Virus genome (UHGV): UHGV-0263858
Length of the DNA stretch: 28,280 bases
Source of the DNA: a virus
Strand: one strand, 5' to 3'
Numbering within the stretch: the first letter of the stretch is position 1; each line of letters begins with the position of its first letter. A program made the translations under genes and the position numbers. The notes under the pieces were generated by a model, which was not told the origin of the DNA, did not search any database, and saw nothing but the letters and a program-made list of their open reading frames with translations. Shown here piece by piece: positions 8,595 through 24,925 of this stretch.

Positions 8595-8596
8595 GA

Positions 8597-9814
8597 TTAC
8601 AAACTCGCTACATTTCGCCAGACGCCATTAATCAGAACCTGCACCGGGCGTGCATTGGCCCAGCCCACACTTTCACCGCCATCAACACCACTCAGTAAAT
8701 GACCTGATGGCGCATTTCCCCCGCGTCCAATACCAATGGCGCCTCCCAGACGCACATCCTGCACACCGCCTGTTTTGGTCTGATAGCGTGCATCAAAGTT
8801 TCCGTAGTCTGACGGTGTTACCCGCCCTGTAACGTTCACCGCCCGGTTGCTTTGTAACGCGCCATTCTGAAAACGGAATACATGCTGTCCATTGGCATAA
8901 ACATCCAGCAGGCCGTCACCATTCTGTTTAAAGCCAGTATCACTGTCACCAATTGCAATTGAGTTTCCGCCCAGCGCGTTCTGAACGCCGATACCCAGCG
9001 CACCATTGACCTGAGAACCGCCGCCAACAGACACTTTATGCGACATGGATATTTCACCCGTCCGCAGATTAATAGTGAACGGTCGAAGTGGACCAATATC
9101 GCCATTCTCGCCCTGACCTTCACTGGTAGGGATAAGGTGCAGGCACTCTTCCGAACGACGAAAAATCAGACCAAAGGCTTCGTTGAAAATCCTCAGCGCA
9201 TTAACACCACGGATTTTCAGTTCCCCGGTCATGGTGTCACCATCACGCTGAACGGCATTTTTTGCCTTGTCCACCGTAGGTTTTAATCCGAGGCTTTCAA
9301 CAGCCTCATCCTTGTCTTCCACATCCGAAAGATTCTTTTTTCGTTGCAGATAGCGTCTGTCTCCGATTTCCTGAGTAATAATGGCCCTGTCCGGATCAAC
9401 TTCCAGCACCACGTTTTGTGCGTGCGTCAGCCCAAGAACCAGCGTCAGAATAACTTCCTTGATAACGGAGTCCGTCTGGTCTGGTAAAAAGGTGTCCGGA
9501 TAACGTCCGTACGCGATAAGCGTACCTCTGTCGCTGATCATCCCCAGTTCACGAAGGGTTTTACCGGGGTATGATTTACAGTCAATCACAATATCCCCGC
9601 TGATGAAGCCCTCCTCCACCGCACCGTCGGAAAAGGGTTCCTGCCCGAATTCGCCGTACAACGATGTCATTGCTGCCATTTCATCCGGCGTGGATGGCAA
9701 TGCCCGCCCGCCCCCGTCACCAAGCAGAACATGCCGGACGGTCACGGTTTGCCCGTTCTGATATGCTGCTTCAATTTCTGCAGCGCCGGACGTTGTCAGA
9801 ATCAGTCCATTCAT
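8597..9814 (-). CDS. tail fibre protein (P2 gpH-like)
   Basis: 405 aa. N-terminus (LILTTSGAAEIEAA...VLLGDGGG) matches the conserved P2 H baseplate-attachment domain. ATGA overlap with the gpI-like gene. Confidence 0.8.
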   Translation of the reverse strand: MNGLILTTSGAAEIEAAYQNGQTVTVRHVLLGDGGGRALPSTPDEMAAMTSLYGEFGQEPFSDGAVEEGFISGDIVIDCKSYPGKTLRELGMISDRGTLIAYGRYPDTFLPDQTDSVIKEVILTLVLGLTHAQNVVLEVDPDRAIITQEIGDRRYLQRKKNLSDVEDKDEAVESLGLKPTVDKAKNAVQRDGDTMTGELKIRGVNALRIFNEAFGLIFRRSEECLHLIPTSEGQGENGDIGPLRPFTINLRTGEISMSHKVSVGGGSQVNGALGIGVQNALGGNSIAIGDSDTGFKQNGDGLLDVYANGQHVFRFQNGALQSNRAVNVTGRVTPSDYGNFDARYQTKTGGVQDVRLGGAIGIGRGGNAPSGHLLSGVDGGESVGWANARPVQVLINGVWRNVASL

Positions 9815-10401
9815 ACACCTGCCTCACTCTGCCCGCCTGTGGGCACTGTCTTTGTTGTCACACCGGTACTTCTGATTTTTTCTGTCGCCATCACATAGCC
9901 GTAACAAAATCCACGCCCTGTGCTGTTCCCGTAAACGTGAATACTGAACCAGCTGCGCAGATTTTTGGCACGGAGCACCGCATGCTTCAGATCCTGATGA
10001 TCATTCATCAGCACCGGTAAATCCTTCTGCTCCACGTTCAGACGAAAGGTATACGGCTCCCCGGGTGGGCTCTGCTCATACCACTCAACAATCTGCGACC
10101 GGAAGGGACTGTCAGCCAGCGATGCCATCAGCGCCGCTTTAGTCCCTCTGTGGCGGTGGATGTAAGCAGCACGTTTTATCGCAGACCTTTTTTCCGTCTC
10201 CGTCCAGTGTTCATTCCAGGTATCCACCGCCATTTCCCAGGCCAGCCATGGCAGCAATTCAGCAGGACATAAATCGGGATTTTTCACATAGCGGATCAGA
10301 CATACTGCGATTTCCGCCAGCATATCACCGGCGGTACTGTCCACCACCCGCTCTGCCCGGCTGGCGCTGACAGGAAGTATGCTTCTGATTTTGTCATTCA
10401 T
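9811..10401 (-). CDS. baseplate wedge protein (P2 gpI-like)
   Basis: 196 aa. Shares the motif CPAELLPWLAWEMAVDTWNEHW with P2 I (CPANLLPWLAWAFSVDRWDEKW). Confidence 0.8.
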   Translation of the reverse strand: MNDKIRSILPVSASRAERVVDSTAGDMLAEIAVCLIRYVKNPDLCPAELLPWLAWEMAVDTWNEHWTETEKRSAIKRAAYIHRHRGTKAALMASLADSPFRSQIVEWYEQSPPGEPYTFRLNVEQKDLPVLMNDHQDLKHAVLRAKNLRSWFSIHVYGNSTGRGFCYGYVMATEKIRSTGVTTKTVPTGGQSEAGV

Positions 10402-11308
10402 CGGTTGTCTCCACCTTGTTCAGCGTTACCTTACGGCACCACGGTGCCTGCCCCATCGCAGGAACGATATCACTGCCCGGAGAGGTCAGATTCACCGTAA
10501 TCACCCCGGTCTGGTGAAGGGCACCATCCATGCCAGAACGGGATGCCACCGAGCCAATCCGGTGGACGCTGTCAGTGTATGACTGCAGCGCCTTGCGGGC
10601 ATTTGCCATAACCAGTTCACCATCCAGTCCGTAGGGAATATGAATATCCGCCACCACATCGTAGGGAATAATTTCTGCCGTCCGGACACTGACAAAATCC
10701 GTCAGGGGACGGGTTTCATCATCACAGACTGATGCTGCCACCTTATCCAGCAGGGGTTGTGATGCAGTGCCATTTCCGGACCGGGATAACACATAAAGAA
10801 AAACACGCCCTTCCTGTGAATGCGTTTCCGGCCCGTAGGCTTTCACATCCAGCACATCAGGATCGGCACTCTGTGCAAAATAGTGATAGGCATTTTTCGC
10901 GCCTGCGGTGCTGAGTCGTGCCCATGACAACTGGATACGTTCGCGAAAAGCATCATCATCTTCATACACCGCAGGCGTGGGCGGGATAGTGCTGTCATCT
11001 GCCGGGGTAATCACCAGACGCTGTACCTGAAAATTCGCACCAATCTGATCCAGGTCGTTCCTTCGGGCGCTCGCAAGCAGTACACCCCGGACAGCATCAT
11101 TGACCTGCTGGCGCATCAGCGCCACCCGGAAAGCCAGCGCCTCTGCCCATTTATACGCGGGATCAGATTCCACCAGAGCCGAAAACAACGTATCCAGCTC
11201 CTGATACTTCGCCACTATCTGAGTGACCAGCACAGCGGTGTCCGGCACCTCCACCGCATCCGGTACCGGTATCGCGGACAGATCAATAATTGCCTGAGAC
11301 GTTGCCAA
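10394..11308 (-). CDS. baseplate assembly protein (P2 gpJ-like)
   Basis: 304 aa. Shares AIIDL near the start and the conserved ITPADDSTIPPTPAV block with P2 J. The first codon appears to be TTG with SD GGAGA; an alternative start is possible. Confidence 0.85.
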   Translation of the reverse strand: MATSQAIIDLSAIPVPDAVEVPDTAVLVTQIVAKYQELDTLFSALVESDPAYKWAEALAFRVALMRQQVNDAVRGVLLASARRNDLDQIGANFQVQRLVITPADDSTIPPTPAVYEDDDAFRERIQLSWARLSTAGAKNAYHYFAQSADPDVLDVKAYGPETHSQEGRVFLYVLSRSGNGTASQPLLDKVAASVCDDETRPLTDFVSVRTAEIIPYDVVADIHIPYGLDGELVMANARKALQSYTDSVHRIGSVASRSGMDGALHQTGVITVNLTSPGSDIVPAMGQAPWCRKVTLNKVETTDE

Positions 11309-11639
11309 TTTTTATCTCCTCGAGTCGAATCGTTTCCTGAGTTTCGTTGTTCACCCCGACAAGCGTCAGCCACGCGCTTCCTTCTCCTGTCCACGTCACT
11401 TCCACCCGCCGGAGAGTCAGACGGGGTTCCCAGCGTTCAAGGGCGGTTACCGTTTCACGAACAATTCTCACCCGCGTGAAATCATCCTGTGGGTTATCAA
11501 GCAGACTGAAAAGTCTGCTGCCGTATTCCCTGAGCAGGACCCGGCTGCCGACCGGTGTTGACAAAATATCAGTGACGGACTGGCGCAGATGTTCGTTACC
11601 GTGCAGATATCTGCCGGTGGCTGAATCAATACCAATCAT
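11283..11639 (-). CDS. baseplate protein (P2 gpW / T4 gp25-like)
   Basis: 118 aa. Motif SVTDILSTPVGSRVLLREYGS matches P2 W (SIGDILRTPVGSRVMRRDYGS). ATG at 11639 with SD GGAG. Confidence 0.8.
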   Translation of the reverse strand: MIGIDSATGRYLHGNEHLRQSVTDILSTPVGSRVLLREYGSRLFSLLDNPQDDFTRVRIVRETVTALERWEPRLTLRRVEVTWTGEGSAWLTLVGVNNETQETIRLEEIKIGNVSGNY

Positions 11640-11672
11640 GTTGTTTACTCCGGAAAAAGAACTGAAAGGAGA

Positions 11673-12296
11673 TTACATTTGCTGACCAGGCTGTCCGGTG
11701 CTGCCACCACTGTCGCCCCGGTGATTGTGACCGTTATAGACAATTCTGATTTGACTCATCGTTCCGTGATAATCAGAAACCTCACCACCGACCATCAGAT
11801 CCGCCTTAACCACCGCCTCAGCATTCATGGTTGCTTTACCCTGTACGGTCAGGGTATCTGTGATTTCTACCGGACCGTCCAGGGTTCCCCTGCCTGTAAT
11901 TTTATAGCTGCCGCCTTCAGCCAGCGTGATGGACAGAACATTAGCCTGACGGTCGTAACGGATTTCCGTTCCGGTATCAAACAAAATAACATGTTCGTAT
12001 TCACTGCCCTCAGGGACAGGAATGGCGTCAATATTGGGCCCCGGATACACCCGACCGTTACGCAGATCGCCCGCCTCCGATATCACTGTAACGGCATCTC
12101 CGGGGGACGGATAATTACTGACCTGCATGTAGCGCCCGGACTGTACCTGAATCCAGGGCAACGGAGGCGAAAGCACATCCCCGATATCCACCCGAACCAT
12201 CACCGGGCTACCCGGGATCACCTCGTCCACCACGCCGCGACGGACCATGTCCGCCACCCTGCGGCGTAACTCTGCCACTTCATCCGCCAGACTCAT
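11673..12296 (-). CDS. baseplate spike protein (P2 gpV-like)
   Basis: Start chosen at ATG 12296 (MSLADEV, SD GGAGGG) rather than the ORF-track extension to 12590. C-terminal YNGHNHRGDSGGSTG matches the P2 V apex motif (HTHKHPGDSGGTTG). Confidence 0.8.
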   Translation of the reverse strand: MSLADEVAELRRRVADMVRRGVVDEVIPGSPVMVRVDIGDVLSPPLPWIQVQSGRYMQVSNYPSPGDAVTVISEAGDLRNGRVYPGPNIDAIPVPEGSEYEHVILFDTGTEIRYDRQANVLSITLAEGGSYKITGRGTLDGPVEITDTLTVQGKATMNAEAVVKADLMVGGEVSDYHGTMSQIRIVYNGHNHRGDSGGSTGQPGQQM

Positions 12297-12843
12297 CACC
12301 GGTGCCCTCCGATTTCCAGATAAGACGATAATCCTGCTCATGTCTCTTGCCGGTTTCCGGTACTTTACCCAGCCAGACTTCCTGTAACGGCGCACCTGCC
12401 GGAACCGCAAACGGATCTTCGCCGACCGGAATGTCCTGTTCAAAAGAGACACGGAAAACGATGTAGTCGTCCAGCAGCCGGTCGAAGGTATCCACCTCAG
12501 CATCGATAAAAACCGCCGGATCAGCGTTATCCAGCCCGAACGTGGCTCCCTCAATCCAGTCAGATAAATCCATCGCGAGACAACGGGCAAAAATCTGCGG
12601 TTTTGGCACGTTTTCCGTCTTCCCGGCCCGGTCTGTCACCACAAACAGATCACATTTCAGCGTGACCCGCGTTTGCCCGTCGGCAAAATGAGCCTTGTCC
12701 CAGCCCGGTACATCCACAAACACAGCAGGCGTCACCAGTTGCGTCACTTTTTCCGGGTACTCATCGGCATCTTCCACCCAGGGAATTTGTTTCAGACTGT
12801 CAATCACCGCCTGATGCCAGGCGCCCATCATCAATGGCTCCAT
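12280..12843 (-). CDS. tail completion / tail terminator-like protein (lambda gpU-like or P2 R/S-like, uncertain)
   Basis: 187 aa, ATGA overlap with the upstream gene. Weak resemblance to lambda U (AVIDSL versus AVLDAL, acidic FVDV segment). Its position between head-completion and baseplate genes supports a tail-completion role. Confidence 0.45.
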   Translation of the reverse strand: MEPLMMGAWHQAVIDSLKQIPWVEDADEYPEKVTQLVTPAVFVDVPGWDKAHFADGQTRVTLKCDLFVVTDRAGKTENVPKPQIFARCLAMDLSDWIEGATFGLDNADPAVFIDAEVDTFDRLLDDYIVFRVSFEQDIPVGEDPFAVPAGAPLQEVWLGKVPETGKRHEQDYRLIWKSEGTGDESGG

Positions 12844-13565
12844 CACTCCAGCCCCTTAAATACCCGGAATTTCAGTTCATGCTCAAAATTTTTCAGGATC
12901 AGTACTTCCGCATCCGGAAAAACAAAATCCTCTATACGGTTCAGCATGGCTTCATAAATATCAATTTCCGCTTCACGCACCCTCCGTCGTCCGGATGTCT
13001 GTCGGATCAGTATCGTTTTCCTTTTTGATATACGTCCGTTACGATTTTCCGCTTCGAACTGGTTGATAAAGGCATCATCCGTTGACCAGGTGCTGACAGG
13101 CAGGGATTCCCCGGCAGGTTTAAAACGGATCTCCCGTGCCTTCCTGCGGTGAGAAGCTGGTGCAAAACGCCCCCGCTCATCGCGCAACTGATGGCGTTCG
13201 CCGCGTCGTCCCCCACTGATGCGTCCGCGCAGATCGCGTACTTTGATGGCGTTCAGACCGAACCATACCTTCGCCTCATCAAACTCATCACCGTTACGAC
13301 GAATGATAAAATTATGCAGAACACGCTTTTTGATCATTTTCTGACTGCGTGGGGCAACCTGTTTTTTAAACTCTGCCATAGCCTTCATCCGCAGTGCAGA
13401 CGCGGCTCTTTTCAGCGCCACGCCCCAGGCTTTACGGATCTGACTTTTTGACCCACCCAGTTTAGCGATAATTTTCAGCACCTCATCTTCATCAATATCG
13501 ACGACGAGGTTTCGTGCCAGCCGTCGCTGCCGGGCACTGCTTCGTTCATGCTCTCTGACTGCCAT
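12843..13565 (-). CDS. virion morphogenesis / tail completion protein (basic; lambda gpZ-like or P2 R/S-like, uncertain)
   Basis: ATG at 13565 (MAVREHERSS). Basic, Arg/Lys-rich protein immediately after the FII homologue, as for lambda Z. Confidence 0.45.
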   Translation of the reverse strand: MAVREHERSSARQRRLARNLVVDIDEDEVLKIIAKLGGSKSQIRKAWGVALKRAASALRMKAMAEFKKQVAPRSQKMIKKRVLHNFIIRRNGDEFDEAKVWFGLNAIKVRDLRGRISGGRRGERHQLRDERGRFAPASHRRKAREIRFKPAGESLPVSTWSTDDAFINQFEAENRNGRISKRKTILIRQTSGRRRVREAEIDIYEAMLNRIEDFVFPDAEVLILKNFEHELKFRVFKGLE

Positions 13566-13950
13566 AACGTTTACTCGGTCGTTCCGGTGCAGCAGGTGTA
13601 TTTCTCCCGGGCTCTCCACGCGCAAGGGTGATGGTAATCACCCCCTGACCCGCAGTGCCTGACTCATCCCAGCCGGGATCGACTACCTGATAGGGCTCGC
13701 CGTGGATCATGACCCTGTCATATTTTTTCAGACCGGCGGCCCATGCGCTCCGGGTAAATAACACGGGTGCAGTATCACGAATTTCGCCGCTGCCAGTGTT
13801 CATCCCGGTGTTATCTGCCGGGGCATCAAAAACGGCACGGATTTTTCTTTCCGTGCCGCCCGGATATATGCTGATTTCCGTCCCCATCGTATCCAGGATG
13901 ATGTCATCCGCATCACTCATGGCCTGATCGAACAGATTATCGAACATCAT
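13546..13950 (-). CDS. head-tail connector protein (lambda gpFII-like)
   Basis: MMFDNLFDQAMSDADDII matches lambda FII (MADFDNLFDAAIARADETI). Start overlaps the FI stop. Confidence 0.8.
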   Translation of the reverse strand: MMFDNLFDQAMSDADDIILDTMGTEISIYPGGTERKIRAVFDAPADNTGMNTGSGEIRDTAPVLFTRSAWAAGLKKYDRVMIHGEPYQVVDPGWDESGTAGQGVITITLARGEPGRNTPAAPERPSKRYGSQRA

Positions 13951-14315
13951 CACTCCCGGATTTTTTCTGCCAGACCGTCTGCCAGCAACGCGGGAACTGT
14001 GGCTTCATTAACCAGCACAACACTGGAGGCCCGGGCAAACATCAACATTTTTCCCGTCACAGCATCACAGGCTGGCATATGCGCCGTTTTCAGCATACGC
14101 ACCCGGGCGAGTCCCTGCTCAGAATGCATTCCGTCGCCGGATGCATCGTTGCCCACCTCCTCCTTCCCCGTCTCCTCCCCATCGAATCCGGCGGCCTCCT
14201 CCTCCCATTCCGCCAGACGCTGCTCGAGATCGGCTTTTGAACCTGAAATATCTGCTTCACGCCCCAGAATCACTGCCAGTTCCTGCAAACGTTCAGTCAT
14301 CTGCTCTTTTGTCAT
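13950..14315 (-). CDS. DNA packaging/head assembly protein (lambda gpFI-like)
   Basis: Start at ATG 14315 (MTKEQMTERLQELAV), similar to lambda FI (MTKDELIARLRSLGEQL). The ORF-track extension to 14447 would run through the upstream terminator. Confidence 0.75.
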   Translation of the reverse strand: MTKEQMTERLQELAVILGREADISGSKADLEQRLAEWEEEAAGFDGEETGKEEVGNDASGDGMHSEQGLARVRMLKTAHMPACDAVTGKMLMFARASSVVLVNEATVPALLADGLAEKIRE

Positions 14316-14330
14316 CACATCTCTCCCGTG

Positions 14331-14360
14331 CGCTAAAGAAAAAGGCGGGAATATCCCGCC
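14331..14360 (-). terminator. intrinsic terminator (attenuator) after the major capsid gene
   Basis: Minus-strand hairpin GGCGGGA-TAT-TCCCGCC followed by TTTTTCTTT, between the E-like stop (14366) and the FI-like start (14315). Confidence 0.55.
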
Positions 14361-14365
14361 CCGTC

Positions 14366-15394
14366 TTATTTCACCTGAACCACCACAAACGCATCCGGAT
14401 CCGGCAGCACCATCAACGGCGCAGACTGCGTCATGGTATATTCGCAACCAGGATCCCCCACTTCCTCCCAGTGTTTCGGATAACGAATCGCAGAGGTGAT
14501 CCCTTCACTCAGTGCCTGATTATCCTGAATGGCACCATAACAACGGACGCCTTCCGCCTGAGTGTTCCCCAGAATCAGTGTACCTTCCGGCAGATAACGC
14601 TGTTCATCCCCGTTTTCGTCAACATACGTTGTCTTCGCCACCACAATTGCCAGATCGCCGTAATGGCCTTTAAAGGAAACCACGGAGCCCAGGTCTTTCA
14701 GTGCCGTTTCCAGCTCAGATTTGGAGCCACGGCGGGTATCCAGTTTTTCACGGAACAGTTTAAAACCGTTCAGCATACGCCAGACTGTGCCGTCCATAAT
14801 CGCGATATTGATGGTGCCGGAAGCGAAATCGCAGTACGCATCCAGATCATGCGTCGGATCGAAAGTGTCAGCATTCTGCTGTGACCATTCGCGTCCGCCA
14901 GCCTGCGTAATGTTATTGGTGTCAGAACGTCCAAAATCCACTTCCACCGTCTCAAACTGCTCGCCGCTCATGGTGTATTTACCCTGCAGAACGGCACTGA
15001 CCGCCTGCATTTCTTCCACCTGCACAATCGCCTGCTCTTCCTGTTTCAGGTTGTCCGTCAGAATACGCAGACGGCGGTAAGCCGGGTCATTAAGGCGGGC
15101 CGGATCTTCTCCCGGAAGACGTTCCACTGCCTGCTGATAATCAAAGCGGTGTTTTGGTTTTACATAACCGGGACGTAACACGCGGGTTTCACCACCACGG
15201 CTGCGCAGCACTTTGCCTGACACCACCGGAGACACATACGCCGCAACCGGTGTTTTGCCGGTAATTTTATCCAGCATGACTTCCTGAGTATGGAAAGTGA
15301 TCGTGCGACGAAAGAACAACTCCAGAAACAGCGCACGAAATTTCACTTTCTGCTCGGTGTACCCGAGTAACTGACGCGTGGTAAATAACCCCAT
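14366..15394 (-). CDS. major capsid protein (lambda gpE-like)
   Basis: 342 aa with extensive identity to lambda E across its length (for example VSPVVSGKVLRSRGG, PGYVKPKH, QVEEMQAVSAVLQGKYTM, KLDTRRGSKSELETA, IQSAPLM). SD AAGGA upstream. Confidence 0.92.
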   Translation of the reverse strand: MGLFTTRQLLGYTEQKVKFRALFLELFFRRTITFHTQEVMLDKITGKTPVAAYVSPVVSGKVLRSRGGETRVLRPGYVKPKHRFDYQQAVERLPGEDPARLNDPAYRRLRILTDNLKQEEQAIVQVEEMQAVSAVLQGKYTMSGEQFETVEVDFGRSDTNNITQAGGREWSQQNADTFDPTHDLDAYCDFASGTINIAIMDGTVWRMLNGFKLFREKLDTRRGSKSELETALKDLGSVVSFKGHYGDLAIVVAKTTYVDENGDEQRYLPEGTLILGNTQAEGVRCYGAIQDNQALSEGITSAIRYPKHWEEVGDPGCEYTMTQSAPLMVLPDPDAFVVVQVK

Positions 15395-15462
15395 AATTTA
15401 TATTCCTTCAGAAACACAAACGGGCCGCATCGCGACCCGTTTTTCAGTTAATCACTTCACCA

Positions 15463-15798
15463 TCAGGCGTGGCTGATGGCACTTCCCACAAATGCGTTGG
15501 CTTTTTTCACCGCATCCACAGAGTCAGGCCAGACCAGCGACTCAGTGGCAAACGTACCGCTTTTGTAGTACGTCAGCGTGGGTTCTGTTCCGGTAAGCGC
15601 CAGAGCCAGCACCCCCACTGCCGTTCCGGCTTTCTGACCATCCCATGCCACCAGTTTTCCGGTGGCGTCATCCACCATCAGTGGCGTCAGTGCAGGTGTG
15701 GCAGCACTGATACCACTGGTGGCGGTTGCGGTATGCGCCGGATCGCTTCCGGCAAAAATGCGCACATCTGCACGCTTTTCCGTGGTGGTTTTAATCAT
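15463..15798 (-). CDS. head decoration protein (lambda gpD-like)
   Basis: 111 aa. SDPAHTATA...KLVAWDG...YYKSGTF matches lambda D. SD CAGGAG upstream. Confidence 0.88.
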   Translation of the reverse strand: MIKTTTEKRADVRIFAGSDPAHTATATSGISAATPALTPLMVDDATGKLVAWDGQKAGTAVGVLALALTGTEPTLTYYKSGTFATESLVWPDSVDAVKKANAFVGSAISHA

Positions 15799-15837
15799 TT
15801 TTTCAGTCTCCTGATTTATCTGAATTCCGGATACCGC

Positions 15838-17316
15838 TTACGGCATACTCATCAGCAGGTCTTCTTCCCCGCGCCCGGCAGTTCCGCCACCGGAAACCGC
15901 ACTGGCAGCATGCTGTGCCATAAAGCGATCAAAAAGTGTTTCCTGTGACGGTTGCGATGCCGCCGGCGCGGCTGCCAGCAGCGTTTTCGCCTGCGCCACC
16001 GTCATTCCTGGCTGTTCTGTCAGTGCCTGTGCAAGTTGTTCGCGCCCTTTCGCCTCCGGCAGCGCCATAATCTGATCGCCGACACTTGCAGAACCCGCAA
16101 CCGGTGCCGCCGCCAGTAACGTTTTGGCCTGGTCAACGGTCATTCCCGGCTGTTCAGCCAGCGCCTGCGCGAGTTGTTCACGCCCTTTTGCTTCCGGCAA
16201 CGCCATAATCTGATCACCCGTGCTGTCAGTACCGGCAACCGGCGCAGCTGCAAGCAACGTTTTCGCCTGCTCAACCGTCATTCCTGGCTGACCTGCCAGC
16301 ATTTGCGCCAGTTGCTCGCGCCCTTTCGCCTCCTGACAATTCAGGATCCCCATCACGCGCTGATTTTCCTGGACCACCGCTTCAGCAACGGTCAGATTTT
16401 TAACTGTCATCGTTTCCTCCTGTGTAACAGATTCATTCAGTGCAGAAACCATCACTTCAACGGCATCTGCAGCATTAATCAGTTGATCAGCCAGGCCTGC
16501 ATCAATGCCTGCCTGACCGTCATAAACGGCAGCCTCGGTATTCATCACCGCCTCTGAACTCAGCCCCGTATAAAGCGCCACCTTGTCGACAAACATCCGG
16601 CGGGCCTCATCAATACGGCGCTGAAAATCTGCACGCACACCTGCCGGCAATGCCTGAATACTGTTGCCGTCAACCTTGTGCTGCCCGGAGTAAATCAGCG
16701 TGATGTCCACCCCTTCCTGTGCCAGTTGTTTCTCGTAACTGGCGTGCGCCATCATCACGCCAATCGAACCAATTTTTGCCGTCTGCGTGACCAGCCGACG
16801 GGTACAGGCTGCCGCCAGCAACATGGCGGCTGAACAGGCCATGTCATTACACAGCGCCCACACGGGCTTCTGTTCCCGCAGACGGTAAATCATGTCAGCA
16901 CAGTCAAACGCCCCGGCAGCCTGACCGCCCGGGCTGTCGATATCCAGCAAAATGCCGCGCACATCCGGATCATTCACCGCCATCTGAAGGCGGGCCGTCA
17001 GGCCGTCATAACCAGTCATGCCGGAGTAAGGCCGCAGGGTACCCAGTTTATGCACCAGCGTGCCGCTCACCGGCAGAATGGCGATGCCATTCTTCACCTG
17101 GTAACTCTTTGCCGGACGCTGACCGCCCGCCATATAGTCAGTCACAGCCAGTTGCATTCCATCAGCATCAAGCTGAACAGCCTGCTGAGGAACGGCAAGG
17201 CTGCCGGCCCCTATCTCTTTACCCAGCGCGCAAAAGAAAACCCGCGCATAGGCGGGTTCCAGTAAAAGCGGTTCATTAAATGCCATGGCGGCAATATGCG
17301 ATAAATTACGACGCAT
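15838..17316 (-). CDS. head maturation protease with in-frame C-terminal scaffold domain (lambda gpC/Nu3-like, S49 family)
   Basis: 492 aa. N-terminus IAAMAFNEPLLLEPAYARVFFCAL and the core (PVSGTLV, PYSGMTGY, GAFDCADMI, IGVMMAH, LIYSG, HKVDGN) match lambda C. The C-terminal part contains a tandemly triplicated 46-aa unit. Confidence 0.88.
   Translation of the reverse strand: MRRNLSHIAAMAFNEPLLLEPAYARVFFCALGKEIGAGSLAVPQQAVQLDADGMQLAVTDYMAGGQRPAKSYQVKNGIAILPVSGTLVHKLGTLRPYSGMTGYDGLTARLQMAVNDPDVRGILLDIDSPGGQAAGAFDCADMIYRLREQKPVWALCNDMACSAAMLLAAACTRRLVTQTAKIGSIGVMMAHASYEKQLAQEGVDITLIYSGQHKVDGNSIQALPAGVRADFQRRIDEARRMFVDKVALYTGLSSEAVMNTEAAVYDGQAGIDAGLADQLINAADAVEVMVSALNESVTQEETMTVKNLTVAEAVVQENQRVMGILNCQEAKGREQLAQMLAGQPGMTVEQAKTLLAAAPVAGTDSTGDQIMALPEAKGREQLAQALAEQPGMTVDQAKTLLAAAPVAGSASVGDQIMALPEAKGREQLAQALTEQPGMTVAQAKTLLAAAPAASQPSQETLFDRFMAQHAASAVSGGGTAGRGEEDLLMSMP
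15964..16333. repeat. three tandem in-frame copies of a 138-bp unit inside the gpC-like gene
   Basis: DNA landmark CGTTTTCG/CGTTTTGG recurs at 15983, 16121 and 16259 (period 138). Encoded units are EAKGREQLAQ(M/A)L(A/T)(G/E)QPGMTV(E/D/A)QAKTLLAAAP...; lambda has one copy (EAHGREEQARVLAETPGMTVKTARRILAAAP). Confidence 0.85.
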
Positions 17317-18877
17317 CGCCTTTTTCTCCCGTTGTCTGTCGGATCTGCTGCTGAAACGTGTCCTTTATCCAGATGGGGCGGGGAAGACCCGCTGCCTGTC
17401 GCTCCTGGCTTTCACGCAGTTGCTGGCGGAAAATCTCCTGATAGTCATCGCCCATCAGGGCCAGCTCTTTCTCGTACGTGCTCAGGCCACCTTCAATACG
17501 CATCACCGCTTCCTGCACTTCCTTAAGGCCATCAATCGCCATGCGACCGGCACCAATCCACTCGGCACGACACCATCCGGAACGGGCCTCCCAGAATGAA
17601 AAACGGGATTTCGGCGGGCGGATCACACCGCGAATAAGCGCTTCCTCCAGCCAGCAGGCAAACATCTGTGATGCCAGCCGGCTGGCCACAAATTTTCGTT
17701 TGCCCATAAAATACCGCCACGACTCATTGGCGGATGCCCTGGCACTGGAATAACTGACCTGTGAATAATCACGGGAAAGCTGTTCATAGGACACCCCCAG
17801 TCCGGCAGCAATGTAACGTAACAGCGCCTTTTCCAGTTCAGAGAAACCATTATCTGCATTCTGCGCTGTCTGCAGATTCAGTGAATCCCCCGGATAAAGA
17901 TGTGGAATACGGACCCCGCCCAGCTTTACCGTATTGGTGGCGTAATAACGCGCGTAGCCTTTCATGATGGTGTTCAGGGGATTTTTACCGCCATCTCCCA
18001 CCCCGGCGATATATTCAAATGCTTTTTCCGAATCCAGCGTGGATTCAATCGTCGCGGCATACATCGCCCGCACCACCGCCGACTGCAGTTGCGTGGCCTG
18101 CAGTGTGTCGAGCATCTTGAGACGCTCCATGACAGAATAAAACTGGTTGGCCCCGCGCGTCTGCCCGTCCTCCTGCGGCTGAAACACATGGATCATTCCC
18201 GGTCGCCCGGAGGGCAGCGCCGCCGCAATCCGCGTCCAGTTGCTGACACCGTAACCTGGCCAGTCATCTTCCTGAACATGGTAGGCCAGTGCTTTTCCGT
18301 ACCGGTTGATTTCCACCCCGGCACGCATAAAACGATCGCCGGTACCATAACCGGGTGTACTGACACGTTTCGGGCTGATGGTCTTGAATTTCGTCCGGAA
18401 TAATGACGTGGATTCCGTATCCCATACGGGCTGGACAAAAATTTCACCGTTAAATGTATGAACGCCCACCCCTTCACGAATAAATTCGGTAAACGAGCGA
18501 CGCCCCTCCACATCCATCGAACCAAACACCGGATCGCAGAATTCCATCCACGCTGCCTCAACATCTTCAATAAAGACATGTGAATCGGCTTCCGACATCC
18601 CCAGCCAGCGCCAGTTGGGCCGGTAACTCAGACGAAACATGTGTCCGACGATATGGTCTTTATGAATTTCAACGGCGTTTGCGGCAATACCGTTATTGCG
18701 GACCAGATCATCCGCACGGGCGTTACCCAGCTGAATGGAAGGTAAGAGCGCCACGTCGGCACTTTCCGGTGCAGGCAGCCATTCCGCAAGCTGTCCGCCA
18801 AATCCGGTACCCCCTCCGGAATACCCCATACTCTGCCGCAGTGGCTGCCCGTGAAGATCCACCAGTTCCCCGTTCAC
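17306..18877 (-). CDS. portal protein (lambda gpB-like)
   Basis: 523 aa with extensive identity to lambda B (GGGTGFGGQL, ARADDLVRNNG, FNGEIFVQ, YSVMERLKMLDTLQ, LGVSYEQLSRDY, RMAIDGLKEVQEAVM). The start appears to be GTG overlapping the W-like stop. Confidence 0.92.
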   Translation of the reverse strand: MNGELVDLHGQPLRQSMGYSGGGTGFGGQLAEWLPAPESADVALLPSIQLGNARADDLVRNNGIAANAVEIHKDHIVGHMFRLSYRPNWRWLGMSEADSHVFIEDVEAAWMEFCDPVFGSMDVEGRRSFTEFIREGVGVHTFNGEIFVQPVWDTESTSLFRTKFKTISPKRVSTPGYGTGDRFMRAGVEINRYGKALAYHVQEDDWPGYGVSNWTRIAAALPSGRPGMIHVFQPQEDGQTRGANQFYSVMERLKMLDTLQATQLQSAVVRAMYAATIESTLDSEKAFEYIAGVGDGGKNPLNTIMKGYARYYATNTVKLGGVRIPHLYPGDSLNLQTAQNADNGFSELEKALLRYIAAGLGVSYEQLSRDYSQVSYSSARASANESWRYFMGKRKFVASRLASQMFACWLEEALIRGVIRPPKSRFSFWEARSGWCRAEWIGAGRMAIDGLKEVQEAVMRIEGGLSTYEKELALMGDDYQEIFRQQLRESQERQAAGLPRPIWIKDTFQQQIRQTTGEKGDAS

Positions 18878-19083
18878 AGCCCCACTCCTGCCGGGCCGCG
18901 ACGCCGTCCGGATACACCCAGCGCACTTTCCAGCTCTTCAATATACTGACGCAGTTCACCAATCGTCGCCCGCGAATACTGAACCTGACGCCCGTCCTTG
19001 CTGACGGAAACCACAGCACGTCCGATCATCAGTTCATGTAATGCCCGGCGGGCATCACAAAGCATTTCATGCGTATAAACCAT
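18874..19083 (-). CDS. head-tail joining protein (lambda gpW-like)
   Basis: 69 aa. ARRALHELM...KDGRQVQY...RRRGPAG matches lambda W. SD GGAGG upstream. Confidence 0.85.
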   Translation of the reverse strand: MVYTHEMLCDARRALHELMIGRAVVSVSKDGRQVQYSRATIGELRQYIEELESALGVSGRRRGPAGVGL

Positions 19084-19086
19084 TCT

Positions 19087-21003
19087 TTATCCTCCACTCA
19101 GTGCAGCCGCGATTTCTTCCAGACTCATCTCATCGTCGTCCTGCTCATCTCTTCTGGCACGGGCCAGAGCTTCAAGATCCAGCTGCCACCGCTGAACTGA
19201 AATACGCAGGGCAGCATAGGCATATACCAGGCAGTCGAGGGCTTCGTTGCGTCGCCCTTTTTTATCCCACAGCAGTTTCACCCTGCCATTAACCACCTTC
19301 TCCACCAGCTCTTCCGCCACGATCTGACGCGCCTCTTCTTCCGAAAAAATGTCGGGGTTATCCGGAAAACGGAAGGTGTACGGGGCGGCTTCACTGGCAG
19401 AGACCACTGGCAGGGCAAAACGGGCGTACAGCATTTCCTTGACGGTATCGGAGCCCACCTCACACAAAAACACACCACGCTGGTTGCGCTTTTTGGGCAT
19501 GGTGATCACCGGCTTGCCGTACACCGATGCCCCTTTTATGGGAAGCACAAAAAAAGTGCCGTGTTTCCTTGAACGCTGATACACAATGTCCTGGTCGATA
19601 CCACCGGTATCCCAGCAGACACGGGAAATGGAAATTTCAGTACCGTCAGCATGACGATATTTTTTCCGGATCACCGTATCAACACGTTTAAGGGTGTCCT
19701 CGTCTTCCGGTCGCCCCATGATAATTTGCTTATCAATCAGAAAGGCTTCTTCGCCGGGAGCCCAGCCCCAGACATAAATTTCATAGCGATCTTTCTGGGA
19801 GTCGATCCCGGCAGTCAGGTAAACCACCCGCAGGGGAACCTGCGCGCCATAGTGGCAGACCTTTTCCAGTAACAACTCAAAGCTCAGTTTTTCTGCCACA
19901 GCCTCTTCATAGGGCTCCCCGAGCGTGGTGTTAATAAACGTCTTGACGCCGTTCGGGTCCTTCAGCGCATCCAGCCAGTCGTAGACAATCTGCACCCAGG
20001 TGGTGAATGGACTGTACGCCGTCCAGATGTGGTACGAAATTGAGCGCGGTGGCGGTATCTCCTCATCACCGGCGCTGTAAAATGTCAGGCCATCACGCGT
20101 CCACATCCCGGTATTGTCACAAATCCAGCGTCCGTCGGTCTGGTCAAGTTCCGACTGCCGGATCACACAGCCATTATGTTCACACAGGTAATACACCGTT
20201 TCCGGTTTACCCTTCTCCCATTTCAGGCCAGACGGCGTCGCATCATCGCCAAACTTCAGATACTGGGCCTCCCCGCAATGAGGGCAAGGGACATAAAACC
20301 GCATGAAATGCGCAGATTCATTCGCGGCTTTCTCAATCTGGCAGGAACCTTTGATTTTTGGCGTTGAGCCACGTATGGATTTAGGCCATACCGAGCCTTC
20401 GATACGTTTATCACCAAGCAGCGTCGGCGAGCCTTCTTTTTCCACATCCGGTTCAAACGAGGAGAGTTCGTCATAGCAGACCACATCCACAGATTTTTCA
20501 CGGTAGTTTTTAGCTGCGGCACCGCCCAGGCACCAGAACCCCACACCGGAGGAAAAACGCTTCAGGGTGAGTGTATTATCGCGGTGTTTTCTTCCGAACC
20601 ATGGAGCCAGCTCCAGCAATGCAGGGACATCCCTGATCGTTGGCTCAACATGAGATTTCATGAAATCTTCTGCCGCAGAATCTGTTGGCTGAAAAAGCAG
20701 ACTGTTACGGGATTTATGCTCAATAAAATAAGCCTCCACCCCCAACAGCATTTTGGTGTAACCAACGCGCGCCGATTTAATCAGATTAACGGTGCGGATC
20801 CGGTCATTTCCCATGCTGTTCATAATGGCAACCTGAAACGGCAGGGTTTCCCATTGTCCGGGAGTGTATGAAGATTCTTTCGGCAGATAATAATGTTGAT
20901 CAGCCCACTGAACCGTCGTCAGTGGAACCGGAATATTGAGAGATAAAAGCCCTGTAGCTATCGCACCGGCTGCATTAGCTGCCTTCTGTGCGTCTGAAAT
21001 CAT
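19087..21003 (-). CDS. terminase large subunit (lambda gpA-like)
   Basis: Identity to lambda A along the whole length ([25 protein letters not shown](T/S)[111 protein letters not shown]). Start set at ATG 21003 (SD AGGTGG); the ORF track extends to 21045. Confidence 0.93.
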
Positions 21004-21523
21004 CAATCCACCTGCCCACGTTTTCACCGGCGTTAGCTGCAACATTGGAGGCTTTCGCGATTTCAGTTTTCACCGCATCAAGGTGTGACGGTGAAATATC
21101 CGGATATTTACGCTGTAATGTCAGCGGCACACGTACAAGTATCCCCGAAATCTCCTGTGCCACACGTTGCAGAATGAAGGTAAACAATTCCGTTTCCAGC
21201 ACCAGCCCTTCTTCACGGGCATTTTTCAGCTCCTGTGCGTCAGCCTGTGCTTTGGTGAGCCGGTAGCGTTCATAGTCAATGGTGCCGGGTTGTAAATCTG
21301 ATTCTGCAGCCGCACGCAAATCTTCCAGTTCTTTGCGGAGCTTTTCGTTTTCGATATCAGTTTCTCTCTGCGCGTACCACTGAATTGCCATCGCGGTATC
21401 AAACACCGATTCAACACCCTTGCTACCTCCGGAGACGCAAGATAGCCCCTGAGACTGCCAGCGTTCAATCGTTCGCGGATCCACGTTGAAAATTTCAGCA
21501 AGTTTCTTTTTGTTAACTTTCAC
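20975..21523 (-). CDS. terminase small subunit (lambda gpNu1-like)
   Basis: [25 protein letters not shown]...[48 protein letters not shown] matches lambda Nu1. Start is probably GTG at 21523; the ORF track begins at TTG 21541. Confidence 0.85.
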
Positions 21524-21547
21524 AATACATTTCTCTATCAAATACAG

Positions 21548-21602
21548 GGTCCGACATGAAAACGCTTAAAATGCCCTTTTTCGGGTGTTTTCATGTCGGA
21601 CC
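21548..21602. repeat. 16-bp perfect inverted repeat (GGTCCGACATGAAAAC ... GTTTTCATGTCGGACC) with 23-nt spacer, just upstream of Nu1
   Basis: Read directly; followed by TTTTACT on the plus strand. It lies where a cos/terminase-binding region would be expected, but cosN itself is not identified. Confidence 0.4.
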
Positions 21603-21884
21603 TTTTACTGATGTGATATCAGAAAAAACAAATAGTTATGCGCGAGAAGTACCGACATGCTTTTTCCTGAAAAATTTTCATAAATAGCGCGTTTTTGCGC
21701 GTGCTATGACCCCCGGTGTTTCAGATTTCAGAAAGGACCCGCACAAGTGAGAGCATTTATCATTAACATTTACAGATAAGATGACGCACGTCATTGAAAC
21801 ACCATTCAGTCCTATACCGGCAGCATCCGTTGTTGCACTCCGTAACTCTGCTACTAAGGTTAAAAGCATGGCCATCTTTTGCCA

Positions 21885-21926
21885 CCGGCAAATCTTCAAT
21901 GGATTTCCCCTGCCGGTTTTTTATTT
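21885..21926 (+). terminator. plus-strand intrinsic terminator-like hairpin (CCGGCA ... TGCCGG then T6)
   Basis: Stem 21885-21890 with 21911-21916, then TTTTTTATTTTCG. There is no convincing plus-strand CDS upstream, so it may end a small RNA or antisense transcript. Confidence 0.35.
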
Positions 21927-22107
21927 TCGTCGATGCGTAACATTGCATTCACATCAAGAGCAGCTATTGTCATTAGTATGTTGCATCAATGCATGGGTGG
22001 TATTGGCGGTCTTCGCCGGCCGGTTCTGTGTAGCTGCTCCCTGTGACCGGTTTTTTATTTCTCACATTACAGCATCCCCTCAGAGTGAAGGGCTGCTGTA
22101 ATGTCTG

Positions 22108-22407
22108 TTACTCAGTAACTACCGCACCTTCCGGTAATTCCATACCGGCAAATACCGGACAACCAGGATGACGATCAGCTTCTGTTGCTTCCAGCATTGA
22201 CTCACCAAACCACTCCGTCGTGGCACGACCATCAGCTGCTTTGTAGTGGATCAAGTACTGGTTTTCGCCATCCGCATACTGCGCACGGGCTTTAACCTCA
22301 CCCCATTCATCACTGATGCGCATCTCCACCAGTTGAGACAACTCAAACTTAAACGGAGCAGCATCAGCACCAATTACAATCGGTTTGTTTTCTGTTGTTT
22401 CCATCAT
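22108..22407 (-). CDS. hypothetical acidic protein (99 aa)
   Basis: ATG-ATG start at 22407 with SD CAGGAG. Followed by a 10-bp inverted repeat (CATTACAGCA / TGCTGTAATG, 22065-22103). Family not recognised. Confidence 0.55.
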   Translation of the reverse strand: MMETTENKPIVIGADAAPFKFELSQLVEMRISDEWGEVKARAQYADGENQYLIHYKAADGRATTEWFGESMLEATEADRHPGCPVFAGMELPEGAVVTE

Positions 22408-22492
22408 CGTCTCCTGATATCTAATCCCGCCGCCGCACCGGGCGGTGGCGCACCCTTCATTTTTCAGCAAAATATTCTGCTCTTACAGACGA

Positions 22493-22675
22493 TCAGTTCT
22501 GCACACACCGTCGAACGCCATCAATAAGCTGACAGACCTGAGACGCGGTATCGAAAAGCTGGCGCGCCTTATCCAGGCTGACGCATCCCACCAATAAAAA
22601 AGGCACCAGTATCGCTACCAGTGCCCATTTCGCCGCCACTCGCGGTATTCTGTGTGTCCAGTGTTTTCGGCTCAT
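22493..22675 (-). CDS. small lipoprotein (60 aa; signal peptide with lipobox L-V-G-C)
   Basis: MSRKHWTHRIPRVAAKWALVAILVPFLLVGCVS... The mature part of about 30 aa has two further Cys and is not Pro-rich, unlike Rz1-type o-spanins. ATG lies 1 nt after the upstream ORF stop. Confidence 0.5.
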   Translation of the reverse strand: MSRKHWTHRIPRVAAKWALVAILVPFLLVGCVSLDKARQLFDTASQVCQLIDGVRRCVQN

Positions 22676-22676
22676 G

Positions 22677-22763
22677 TCACCACCAACGCACAGCCCAAAT
22701 CAGAACAGCGACCGCCACAAGGCGGATTGCAAAGGCCGTTGCCCGAATAAAATCAGCACTCAT
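22677..22763 (-). CDS. putative 28-aa hydrophobic peptide
   Basis: MSADFIRATAFAIRLVAVAVLIWAVRWW. The ATG overlaps the stop of the upstream ORF (ATGA). Below the ORF-track size cutoff and could be non-coding. Confidence 0.3.
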   Translation of the reverse strand: MSADFIRATAFAIRLVAVAVLIWAVRWW

Positions 22764-22957
22764 CTGTTTAAATAAATTGTTGTGTATGCAACCAGTGCAG
22801 TACAAATAATCCATGCAACTGGCGTCAGTATATGTCTGATGCCCCGGCATACCGCGATGTTTTTTGCGGCATCATCAGCCCCCTGCGGGGTGGTTTCTGC
22901 TTTTATCATCAGATCATCTCCAAATTTATCTTTCGTCGTGTTAGGCTTTACTGGCAT
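22760..22957 (-). CDS. small tail-anchored membrane protein (65 aa)
   Basis: Start chosen at ATG 22957 (MPVKPNTTKDKF..., SD GGGGA); the ORF track extends to 22999 inside the terminator hairpin. Has a C-terminal hydrophobic segment WIICTALVAYTTIYL. Confidence 0.45.
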   Translation of the reverse strand: MPVKPNTTKDKFGDDLMIKAETTPQGADDAAKNIAVCRGIRHILTPVAWIICTALVAYTTIYLNR

Positions 22958-23001
22958 GAATGATCCCCATGCACATTCACAAAATGAATCCATAAACACA
23001 A

Positions 23002-23040
23002 AGCCCCGATTGCTCCAACAACAACCGGGGCTTTGCTTTA
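23002..23040. terminator. hairpin terminator immediately after the endolysin gene
   Basis: Stem AGCCCCG / CGGGGCT (23002-23008 with 23026-23032) followed by T-rich sequence on both strands, 10 nt after the endolysin stop. Confidence 0.5.
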
Positions 23041-23041
23041 T

Positions 23042-23419
23042 TTATCGTTTCAACTGAAAGTGAGGCCCGTCTTTCAGTGTTTTCCAGTCCCCGCCCCATT
23101 CGATGGCTGTTCCCAGCTCTGCGGCAGCCTGCTTAAATGCCTGCGCGATTTTCTCGTACAGAGGCCAGTCCCATGACACCTGGCTGCCAACCCAGGCAAC
23201 AACATCCACCGCATCACCGGTCAGGTGGCGGCTGTTCATGGTCTGGCTTTTCCCTTCCGCGACCAGCTGTTTCTGGCGTTCTTTCGTGCGCAGCCCTTCC
23301 GTAATACCGAAATCAACCTCCGTCAGCTCCAGCGCACGGCGAACGACAGCAACCAGCTGTGGTTTAACGCCCTCCAGATTCTTTTCGCTGCGACGACTAA
23401 ATCTGAATTTACCCGACAT
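23042..23419 (-). CDS. endolysin, L-alanyl-D-glutamate peptidase (T5 Lys-like, peptidase M15 family)
   Basis: Start at ATG 23419 (SD GAGGTG). SEKNLEGVKPQLVAVVRRALELTEVDFGITEGLRT...HLTGDAVD matches T5 endolysin (SEKQLATVKPELQKVARRALELSPYDFTIVQGIRT...HITGDAID). Confidence 0.8.
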   Translation of the reverse strand: MSGKFRFSRRSEKNLEGVKPQLVAVVRRALELTEVDFGITEGLRTKERQKQLVAEGKSQTMNSRHLTGDAVDVVAWVGSQVSWDWPLYEKIAQAFKQAAAELGTAIEWGGDWKTLKDGPHFQLKR

Positions 23420-23421
23420 AT

Positions 23422-23697
23422 TCACCTCAACAATGGAAAGATTTTTGTGACGTTCCCGCGTGCGCGTATCACCAGCACGCAGAACAACAGATTAAAAAAC
23501 ACTTCCAGCCAGCCCGTTGCTAACGGGCGACCACACAGATAGCTGAGGGGCGCAAAGGCATACAGCAGTATCAGCAGCCAGGCCATCCATGACACCAGCG
23601 GTTTATGTCTGGAATCACGGCGACGATAAAAAAAGAGCGTCAGCACGATAATCGTGCATAACGCCACATTCAGCAATCCGGGAAGGTTACTTAACAT
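23422..23697 (-). CDS. membrane protein with three predicted TM segments (holin or antiholin candidate)
   Basis: Start at ATG 23697 with strong SD GGAGGAGG. 91 aa, three hydrophobic segments. Sits between the holin-like and endolysin genes. Confidence 0.55.
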   Translation of the reverse strand: MLSNLPGLLNVALCTIIVLTLFFYRRRDSRHKPLVSWMAWLLILLYAFAPLSYLCGRPLATGWLEVFFNLLFCVLVIRARGNVTKIFPLLR

Positions 23698-24079
23698 TGC
23701 CGCCTCCTCCACCCCGCAGGCGGGAGAACAAGCCGGACACCAGTGATGCGATATCCTGCTGGTGGATGAACGACAGAATCTTCACCGACACCACCGCCAC
23801 CAGCACCGCACACAGTGCATCCGCAGATGTACCGTCATAACCTGTTTTTGATGCAATCCAGGCTGACAGCACATGCGCACCCAGCACGCCAACGATAAAC
23901 GACACCAGAAAATGCGCCGCCACACGCCAGGCTGAAAGCGCCTGCGGCATCGTTGCCACAAATAACGCCCCGGCGAACGCCCCAAACACAATCCCGAAAT
24001 CCGTTCCGGTAAACAGCCCGAATACCGTCGCCCCGCCGAGCGCCGCAGCCGTACCGGAACCGGACAAGGGTTCAGACAT
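23687..24079 (-). CDS. holin-like membrane protein (Gly/Ala-rich TM segments)
   Basis: Start at ATG 24079 (MSEPLSGSG, SD GGAGAAAAAG), not the ORF-track start at 24229. 130 aa with three or four TM segments; first gene of the lysis cassette. Confidence 0.55.
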   Translation of the reverse strand: MSEPLSGSGTAAALGGATVFGLFTGTDFGIVFGAFAGALFVATMPQALSAWRVAAHFLVSFIVGVLGAHVLSAWIASKTGYDGTSADALCAVLVAVVSVKILSFIHQQDIASLVSGLFSRLRGGGGGNVK

Positions 24080-24096
24080 ACTTTTTCTCCTGTAAA

Positions 24097-24128
24097 TAAA
24101 AAAGGGCCACCAGCGGCCCATAAAAAAA
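24097..24128. terminator. hairpin (GGGCC-ACCAGC-GGCCC) flanked by A-run and T-run, immediately upstream of the holin-like gene
   Basis: Read directly. On the minus strand the hairpin is followed by TTTTTTATTT and then the holin SD. Confidence 0.45.
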
Positions 24129-24167
24129 CACCCGTCAAAGGCACCCACAGATACCTTTTGTGTGGTG

Positions 24168-24320
24168 TTATTCAGATTTACGCAGTAAAGGCCAGAGTAC
24201 GGCCAACGCCATCGCCACCAGCACACCATCTGCCAGCACCGACATCAGCCGTCCGGTGAAATCCACCGCCACTACCAGAAACAGCAGGACGGCAGCCAGC
24301 ACAAGGCGCGCACTTTTCAC
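24168..24320 (-). CDS. putative small two-TM protein (50 aa), GTG start overlapping the TerB-like stop
   Basis: Manual translation VKSARLVLAAVLLFLVVAVDFTGRLMSVLADGVLVAMALAVLWPLLRKSE with GTGA overlap. Could instead be a non-coding leader. Confidence 0.3.
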   Translation of the reverse strand: MKSARLVLAAVLLFLVVAVDFTGRLMSVLADGVLVAMALAVLWPLLRKSE

Positions 24321-24742: not shown

Positions 24743-24880
24743 CGTGACTTTTCCTTTTAGTGGGTGAGCCTCGCCCCGGGATGAGCAGCCCACAGAGAAA
24801 GTCACACTGACCATCCCGTAAGCTCACCCCTGAAAGGCTCTGTGGTTTTTTTGATGTGCGCCGGGCGTGGCGCGGAAATA

Positions 24881-24903: not shown

Positions 24904-24925
24904 GCATAAATACTGAATTCTGAAT

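Follow-up and report, generated by a model that had tools for sequence, protein, structure and literature searches.

The viral genome UHGV-0263858 raises the question of whether lambda-type packaging and head genes that run directly into a P2-type baseplate and fibre block form a working hybrid, and, if they do not, where the break lies. We analyse a stretch of 28,280 nucleotides (nt) of this genome, hereafter the window, in which all virion genes read on the minus strand. An earlier note, made from the sequence alone, took the block for a functional hybrid rather than a deletion scar. We find that the window is almost certainly a recombinant that joins two distinct prophages within the fibre gene H. 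An orderly gene arrangement can mask a break, and the true discontinuity lies in the fibre gene, not at the head-baseplate join.

Fibre gene H and its two parental prophages

The left and right parts of the window match different prophages. From window position 1 to 8995, the sequence matches the right-hand end of an HP1/P2-like prophage that adjoins flk in strain STEC719 (locus L002), at 99.93% identity (5 mismatches and 1 gap) and a constant offset of +20000. The same prophage also adjoins flk in STEC316 and STEC711. Positions 8850-28280 are instead 99.3-100% identical to the ompW prophages of STEC719 and STEC005. A lambdoid prophage is inserted in ompW in STEC005 (NZ_CP041437), CFIAFB20190172, and STEC316, and these relatives share with the window the gene order Nu1-A-W-B-C-D-E-FI-FII-Neck1-collar-V-W-J-I-H.

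The two matches overlap inside H. The window equals the STEC719 flk prophage exactly across 8001-8995 and the STEC719 ompW prophage (locus L003) exactly across 8850-10299. Beyond the 8850-8995 overlap, either parent diverges sharply from it. Because the window equals both parents within this interval and only one parent on each side, the crossover is placed there. If the lambdoid parent had a fibre tip of the STEC316 type, homology would extend as far as 8113, which could widen the crossover interval.

8040-8594, minus strand: tfa, P2 G-like fibre assembly gene (Caudo_TAP PF02413), flk-prophage-derived in this copy
8597-9814, minus strand: H, hybrid tail-collar fibre of 405 amino acids (PF12571), frame intact
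8850-8995, no strand: crossover interval, 146 base pairs (bp) identical to both parental prophages

The gene H is a hybrid: its ~273 N-terminal codons derive from the lambdoid/P2 prophage, its C-terminal tip from the flk prophage. The earlier note had reported clean junctions. There is indeed no scar at the head-baseplate join, but a scar does lie in H at 8850-8995, ~2.7 kb beyond the left limit of the 11673-21523 interval to which that note had confined the module. The interval covers Nu1 to V, while W, J, I, H, and tfa run on to 8040.

To the left of tfa, the window carries the distal end of the flk prophage and its bacterial flank.

1-992, minus strand: flk, partial, the left bacterial flank (STEC719 annotation, L002 19997-20992)
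1312-2052, plus strand: DUF4875 gene (Pfam), between flk and the prophage end
about 2245-2385, minus strand: hok/Gef toxin gene (STEC719 annotation, L002), between flk and the prophage end
3215-4912, minus strand: VgrG-like hub/spike "baseplate protein", 565 amino acids (phrog_2258, E=4e-232; VgrG matches weak)
4909-5484, minus strand: HP1 ORF34-like baseplate complex protein (PF25759, E=9.7e-54)
5456-6169, minus strand: phage protein, 237 amino acids (phrog_31292, E=2.7e-73; phrog_1677)
6166-6741, minus strand: DUF4376 partner of the second fibre (Pfam, PHROGs)
6738-8033, minus strand: second tail-collar fibre (Pfam Phage_tail_fib, PHROGs)

The VgrG-like hub, and the second fibre together with its DUF4376 partner (6166-8033), are each 99.9% identical to their STEC719 counterparts. 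Upstream of its fibre, the flk prophage encodes a P2-family capsid, a DUF2586 sheath, a tube, a tape measure protein (TMP), a gp25-like protein, J, and I of its own; its sheath, tube, TMP, J, and I have zero tblastn matches in the window. The hub and spike genes of this prophage are placed at the distal end of the tail operon, past the fibres, and its VgrG-like protein has an HTANHTH motif near the C-terminus.

The head-baseplate module and the missing tail genes

The packaging and head genes are of lambda type. Nu1 and a gpA terminase lie beside cos, followed by gpW, B, C, D, E, FI, and FII in lambda order, as the earlier note had read them. Every Pfam match from Nu1 to FII exceeds its curated cut-off.

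20975-21523, minus strand: Nu1 (Phage_Nu1, PF07471)
19087-21045, minus strand: A, terminase (GpA_ATPase PF05876 and GpA_nuclease PF20454)
18874-19083, minus strand: W, lambda-type (Pfam gpW)
17306-18877, minus strand: B, portal (Phage_portal_2)
15838-17316, minus strand: C/Nu3 (Peptidase_S49)
15463-15798, minus strand: D, decoration (HDPD)
14366-15394, minus strand: E, capsid (Phage_cap_E)
13950-14315, minus strand: FI, lambda-type (Packaging_FI)
13546-13953, minus strand: FII, lambda-type, head-tail attachment (Phage_attach)

By blastp, Nu1, A, W, B, C, D, and E share 49-65% amino acid identity with the lambda proteins. The likeness fades towards the tail: FI is 40% identical, confined to its first 40 residues, and FII (33%) is the least lambda-like of the head proteins. 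At the nucleotide level, identity of the head block with phage 21 and lambda relatives is 76-78%, and it reaches 86.7% across Nu1 and the start of A. No window protein matches the P2 head proteins Q, P, O, N, M, or L.

Two bridging genes lead from the head block into a P2-type baseplate, with V, W (gp25), J, and I in one operon, together with the collar fibre H and the G-type chaperone. These had been described as two tail-completion-like genes followed by P2-type V, W, J, I, H, and tfa, and both descriptions are borne out. The baseplate and fibre assignments come from Pfam, TIGR01644, TIGR01634, and blastp against P2, in which V, W, J, I, and the G-type tfa share 26-41% identity with their counterparts (36% for tfa against P2 G). 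Profile searches could have assigned head or baseplate to other lineages; they upheld both.

12843-13565, minus strand: tail completion/Neck1 (phrog_27 "tail completion or Neck1", E=2.5e-28)
12280-12846, minus strand: tail collar/terminator (phrog_1072), homologue of the R2-pyocin collar PA0615
11673-12296, minus strand: V, spike (TIGR01644 phage_P2_V, 69.9 bits against a cut-off of 46.75)
11283-11639, minus strand: W/gp25, P2-type (GPW_gp25, PF04965)
10394-11308, minus strand: J (Baseplate_J, PF04865)
9811-10401, minus strand: I (TIGR01634 tail_P2_I equivalog, NCBIfam; PF09684)

One of the two bridging genes specifically encodes a sheath collar. This gene (12280-12846) has no Pfam family, but a profile built from it and three homologues matches PA0615 (PDB 6u5f) over its full length (E=1.1e-11). 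Sequence and profile searches found neither a Pfam nor a PDB relative of Neck1.

Gene junctions read directly from the sequence are tight, as previously noted. FI and FII overlap or abut, and stops and starts overlap by 20 nt at FII/neck1, 4 nt at neck1/collar, and 17 nt at collar/V. All genes from Nu1 through I are intact and have the lengths annotated in relatives, except C, which has fewer 138-nt repeats.

The head-baseplate join is widely conserved. The E-to-V stretch (11600-14500) occurs in 75 of the 5,426 complete Escherichia coli genomes at 92-100% identity, counted at a coverage of at least 80%, and 27 IMG/VR contigs, several with lengths of 42-44 kb, likewise contain the E-FI-FII-neck-collar-V stretch. 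The E. coli ompW lambdoid myovirus family is thus present in ~1.4% of complete E. coli genomes. Blastn similarity to lambda/21-type siphoviruses ends near 14196, within FI. The join is a native, conserved, and translationally coupled mosaic without a deletion scar.

A further IMG/VR contig suggests how this mosaic could have been assembled. In IMGVR_UViG_2917403263_000003 (L023 2116-9301), Neck1, collar, V, W, and J are 93-98% identical in amino acid sequence to those of the window. The head of the same contig is another one, with a DUF1441 small terminase, gpA terminase, lambda-family portal, ClpP-capsid fusion, and cement protein, and its FII is only 42% identical to that of the window. This contig provides direct evidence for a head-module swap at the FII/Neck1 seam. 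Since it, Hafnia phage yong2, and Citrobacter phage Chris1 pair a similar tail with ClpP-capsid heads, the tail module and its FII-type adaptor are traded as a unit among head types, a true modular mosaicism with the seam in or just after FI.

The tail of the window copy is incomplete. In the ompW prophages of STEC005, CFIAFB20190172, and STEC316, H is followed by tfa (one or two copies), sheath, tube, and tail assembly protein (E), then by a ~550-amino-acid unannotated protein at the position of P2 gpT (tape measure), and then by U, X, and D. Beyond D lie a distal fibre, DUF4376, rha, ash, and the ompW remnant. This parental tail order matches that of P2, V-W-J-I-H-G and then FI-FII-E-T-U-D. 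Every IMG/VR and draft contig that reaches far enough likewise continues from tfa into sheath and tube. In the window, we find no sheath FI, tube FII, E/E', T, U, X, or D: the parental sheath, tube, E, T, U, X, and D have zero tblastn matches, and the list of open reading frames (ORFs) holds no unassigned ORF big enough to conceal them. The tail shaft and hub genes of a self-sufficient virion module are thus absent from the window operon. Because it lacks the sheath, the tube, the chaperone, the tape measure, U, X, and D, the present copy cannot build a tail alone; it can encode heads, wedges, spike, and fibres but neither tube, sheath, tape measure, nor hub.

This bears directly on whether the block as it stands could be a complete functional hybrid virion module, either lacking sheath and tube by design or supplied with tail parts by adjacent genes. 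Its ORFs from Nu1 to tfa are all intact and tightly coupled, and a VgrG-like hub and an ORF34-like baseplate protein are encoded further downstream. However, homologues of sheath, tube, tape measure, U, X, and D are nowhere in the window, every relative that extends far enough has a full tail, and the downstream genes belong to another prophage, whose J and I are dissimilar to those of the window. The module also encodes a sheath collar and a gp25-type sheath initiator, which would be purposeless without a sheath and argue against a tail-less or podovirus-like design. We therefore consider a functional hybrid highly improbable. The native character of the head-baseplate join, seen in the 75 E. 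coli genomes and 27 IMG/VR contigs, is the part of that proposal that stands; function does not, with seven tail genes absent.

An internal deletion in a single lambdoid/P2 prophage, running from H-tfa to its own distal fibre and DUF4376 gene and losing sheath to D, would also remove these genes. In its favour, the parental second fibre and DUF4376, which lie after D, are 88-91% identical to window 6208-7603. But positions 1-8995 are 99.93% identical to the flk prophage as against 88-91% to the lambdoid distal fibre. The window also runs on into the ORF34-like and VgrG-like genes, hok, DUF4875, and flk, where the parents have rha, ash, and the ompW remnant after the distal fibre instead. The identity pattern and the flk flank refute this explanation, and we give it almost no credence.

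The ompW prophage region seems to be rearranged often. In the STEC719 copy (L003 1-4100), Mu-like transposase and AAA ATPase genes directly follow the tube gene and the sheath is frameshifted, and in the STEC316 copy (L012 35782-48309) Mu-like tail genes adjoin the holin.

Copies of the family also differ in the scaffold part of C/Nu3. A repeat search finds three in-frame 138-nt (46-residue) repeats at 15963-16376, an array that Tandem Repeats Finder did not detect. The window C, with three copies, is 492 amino acids long. The C proteins of CFIAFB20190172 (538 amino acids) and of STEC719 and STEC005 (584 amino acids) correspond to four and five copies, respectively, as derived from annotated protein lengths.

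The packaging site and the region to its right show further features.

21560-21711, minus strand: cos region, whose cosB-like part can be aligned to the left end of phage 21 (annotated cos segment of that phage)
25309-25383: tRNA-Gly-tcc, between the DNA methyltransferase and lysis genes
25500-25584: tRNA-Tyr-gta, between the DNA methyltransferase and lysis genes
25593-25668: tRNA-Thr-tgt, between the DNA methyltransferase and lysis genes

In the alignment to the phage 21 left end, cosB repeats of the CATGTCGG type are conserved upstream of Nu1. At the cosN position (21700-21711), the 12 nt read GGTCATAGCACG versus GGGCGGCGACCT, with 7 positions differing from lambda/21. Given this divergent 12-mer, the cohesive end may deviate from that of lambda and phage 21.

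The tRNA-Tyr gene sits in a 206-bp segment (25386-25591) that is missing from the otherwise 99-100% identical STEC719 and STEC005 copies. In the 98-99% identical CFIAFB20190172 copy, the space from the tRNAs to the holin holds genes for a subtilase AB5 cytotoxin (B, A, B; L001 32041-33951), whereas the window has TerB and DUF3927 genes at that position. Because that copy carries subtilase genes, the ompW lambdoid family can be toxin-converting. A 306-kb non-chromosomal record of STEC711 (NZ_CP041417.1, 293845-300599) matches window 21667-28280, comprising lysis genes, tRNAs, and methyltransferase, at 98%. Lambdoid late-region DNA on such a non-chromosomal record is unusual.

Origin of the junction in H

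The two-prophage anatomy of the window is near-certain and is common to two readings: the crossover took place in vivo, or it was made by an assembler. We favour an in vivo origin, to which we give slightly better than even chances. Because all genes from Nu1 to I are intact, the rearrangement is either recent or not biological.

An assembly or scaffolding artefact would have mis-joined contigs of an intact lambdoid/P2 prophage (probably at ompW) and of a separate intact flk prophage via the fibre-tip repeat. Short-read assemblies break at the fibre tip, a repeat in which draft and Logan contigs of relatives end: L046, L047, and L048 stop inside H at window-equivalent positions 9198, 8982, and 9131, and the end at 8982 falls in the 146-bp identical stretch. 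The junction, whose two sides are otherwise undamaged, is also unique to the window, and in the nearest complete genome the join would equal a lethal 1.24-Mb deletion. Against an artefact, a 146-bp exact repeat with ~90% identical flanks is normally resolved or left broken, as in these three contigs. A mis-join is also unlikely if the source was a long-read genome like those of the nearest relatives, which are finished genomes. Furthermore, recombination of ompW prophages with other prophages, along with chromosome inversions, has been documented in finished Shiga toxin-producing E. coli (STEC) genomes (PMC8112680). On balance, we regard an artefact as a substantial possibility that falls short of being probable.

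Several observations weigh against an in vivo crossover. The hybrid junction is present in one piece in none of the 5,426 complete E. coli genomes, its pattern is unmatched in GTDB species representatives and JGI metagenome contigs, and an exact-protein search of the gene-position collection has no record of the hybrid H protein. In STEC719, the closest strain, the fibre genes of the two prophages form direct repeats on either side of the terminus, separated by 1.24 Mb. Judging from the K-12 map, a simple crossover in this layout would produce a lethal terminus deletion, and a less direct route would be needed. The window stops short of the sequence that would separate the candidate routes.

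The in vivo account that we favour would unite the late region of a lambdoid prophage (from ~8850 rightward), which lies at ompW in close relatives, with the right end of the HP1/P2-like prophage adjoining flk (from ~8995 leftward) by homologous crossover in the 146-bp identical stretch of H. Since the fibre genes of a K-12-collinear genome would be arranged as direct repeats, the viable routes would be circular insertion or inversion. By the first route, a circular lambdoid genome would insert by a single crossover into the resident flk prophage, which would yield the observed arrangement in a collinear chromosome. By the second, the crossover would be an inversion in a strain whose ompW region was already inverted. 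STEC316 has its ompW prophage in inverted orientation with respect to the one at flk, so such a route exists.

The first route implies a prophage within a prophage without att sites, in which a whole circular lambdoid myovirus genome recombined into the resident HP1/P2-like fibre gene. We think this specific outcome unlikely. If true, the event would have swapped the receptor-binding tip of the fibre and its chaperone and split the late operon, leaving the sheath-to-D genes tens of kb off, on the far side of the inserted genome.

In an intact parent, late transcription (presumably Q-dependent) would pass through the lysis genes and cos, and the terminase would fill a lambda-type decorated head. 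W and FII would then close the portal, where a collar-terminated contractile tail with a P2-type baseplate would dock. In the present copy, the operon would pass from the hybrid H to the fibre and hub genes of the other prophage, and then to flk.

For prophage annotation, the window copy should be scored as incomplete or rearranged rather than intact. More generally, shared fibre-tip cassettes are recombination hot spots between unrelated prophages as well as assembly break points.

Comparison with known systems

The closest relatives of the window are its two parents. The ompW lambdoid prophages (STEC005, STEC719, CFIAFB20190172, and STEC316, with ~43-kb IMG/VR contigs) share 99-100% nucleotide identity with it from H (8850) to its right end. 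They continue through tfa into sheath-D, distal fibre, DUF4376, rha, and ash, whereas the window switches in H to the flk prophage. It also differs from them in C, where the 138-nt repeat occurs three rather than four to five times, and in carrying an additional tRNA-Tyr gene. The flk prophage of STEC719, STEC316, and STEC711 provides the 99.93% match over 1-8995, but its own capsid-to-I genes are not in the window.

Among individual phages, lambda and phage 21 have the same nine head genes in the same order, at 49-65% amino acid identity (lambda) and 76-87% nucleotide identity (phage 21). The phage 21 cosB resembles that of the window, but its cosN 12-mer differs at 7 positions. The siphovirus tail of lambda (Z-U-V-G-T-H) is replaced in the window, where FI and FII are poorly lambda-like. 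The tail modules of P2 and the R2 pyocin share homologues of V, W, J, I, H, and G with the window, arranged in the same order, and the window collar is homologous to PA0615. P2 differs in its Q/P/O/N/M/L head and ogr-type control; the window lacks the P2-type FI, FII, E, T, U, X, and D, and identity is 26-41%. Another candidate, e14 (beeE, jayE, ymfQ) as a degraded relative, proved wrong: tblastn of the window virion proteins against K-12 e14 gives no match at 1e-5.

No record in a phage collection of 50,697 entries, searched by megablast and blastn, pairs a C/Nu3-D-E head with the window tail at the nucleotide level. Nothing there spans E to V, and the matches are to lambda/21-type siphoviruses (head) and to phiP27 or Rac-type fibres. 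The closest phage records for FII-Neck1-collar-V-W-J-I are yong2 and Chris1, at 32-59% amino acid identity. Like the window, both combine a gpA-type terminase and lambda-family portal with a P2-type tail. However, their head has a ClpP protease-capsid fusion where the window has C/Nu3-D-E, their sheath-to-D block lies between V and W, and their A and B are 23-25% identical to those of the window.

The full tail gene order recurs in the Jilinvirus HeidiAbel (Bas97), a myovirus by electron microscopy (PMC11990801). Its tail genes are ordered V-W-J-I-fibre-tfa and then sheath-tube-chaperone-TMP-U-X-D, behind a gpA-type terminase and portal. Its W, J, and I share 39-45% amino acid identity with those of the window, but HeidiAbel has a fused major head protein and behaves as virulent.

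The head-tail combination singled out in the earlier note is not new as a kind. Wolbachia WO phages combine P2-like genes for baseplate and contractile tail with lambda-like ones for terminase, portal, and (minor) capsid, and Xylella XfP1/XfP2 are cited as the same kind of lambda/P2 chimera (PMC3235987). By published description, these combinations resemble that of the window, in distant hosts. The E. coli ompW family is thus an uncharacterised member of an established kind of lambda/P2 chimera. Its exact head-tail pairing is unmatched at the nucleotide level in the phage collection, so a characterised member would be gained by induction of an intact copy, for instance the one in STEC005.

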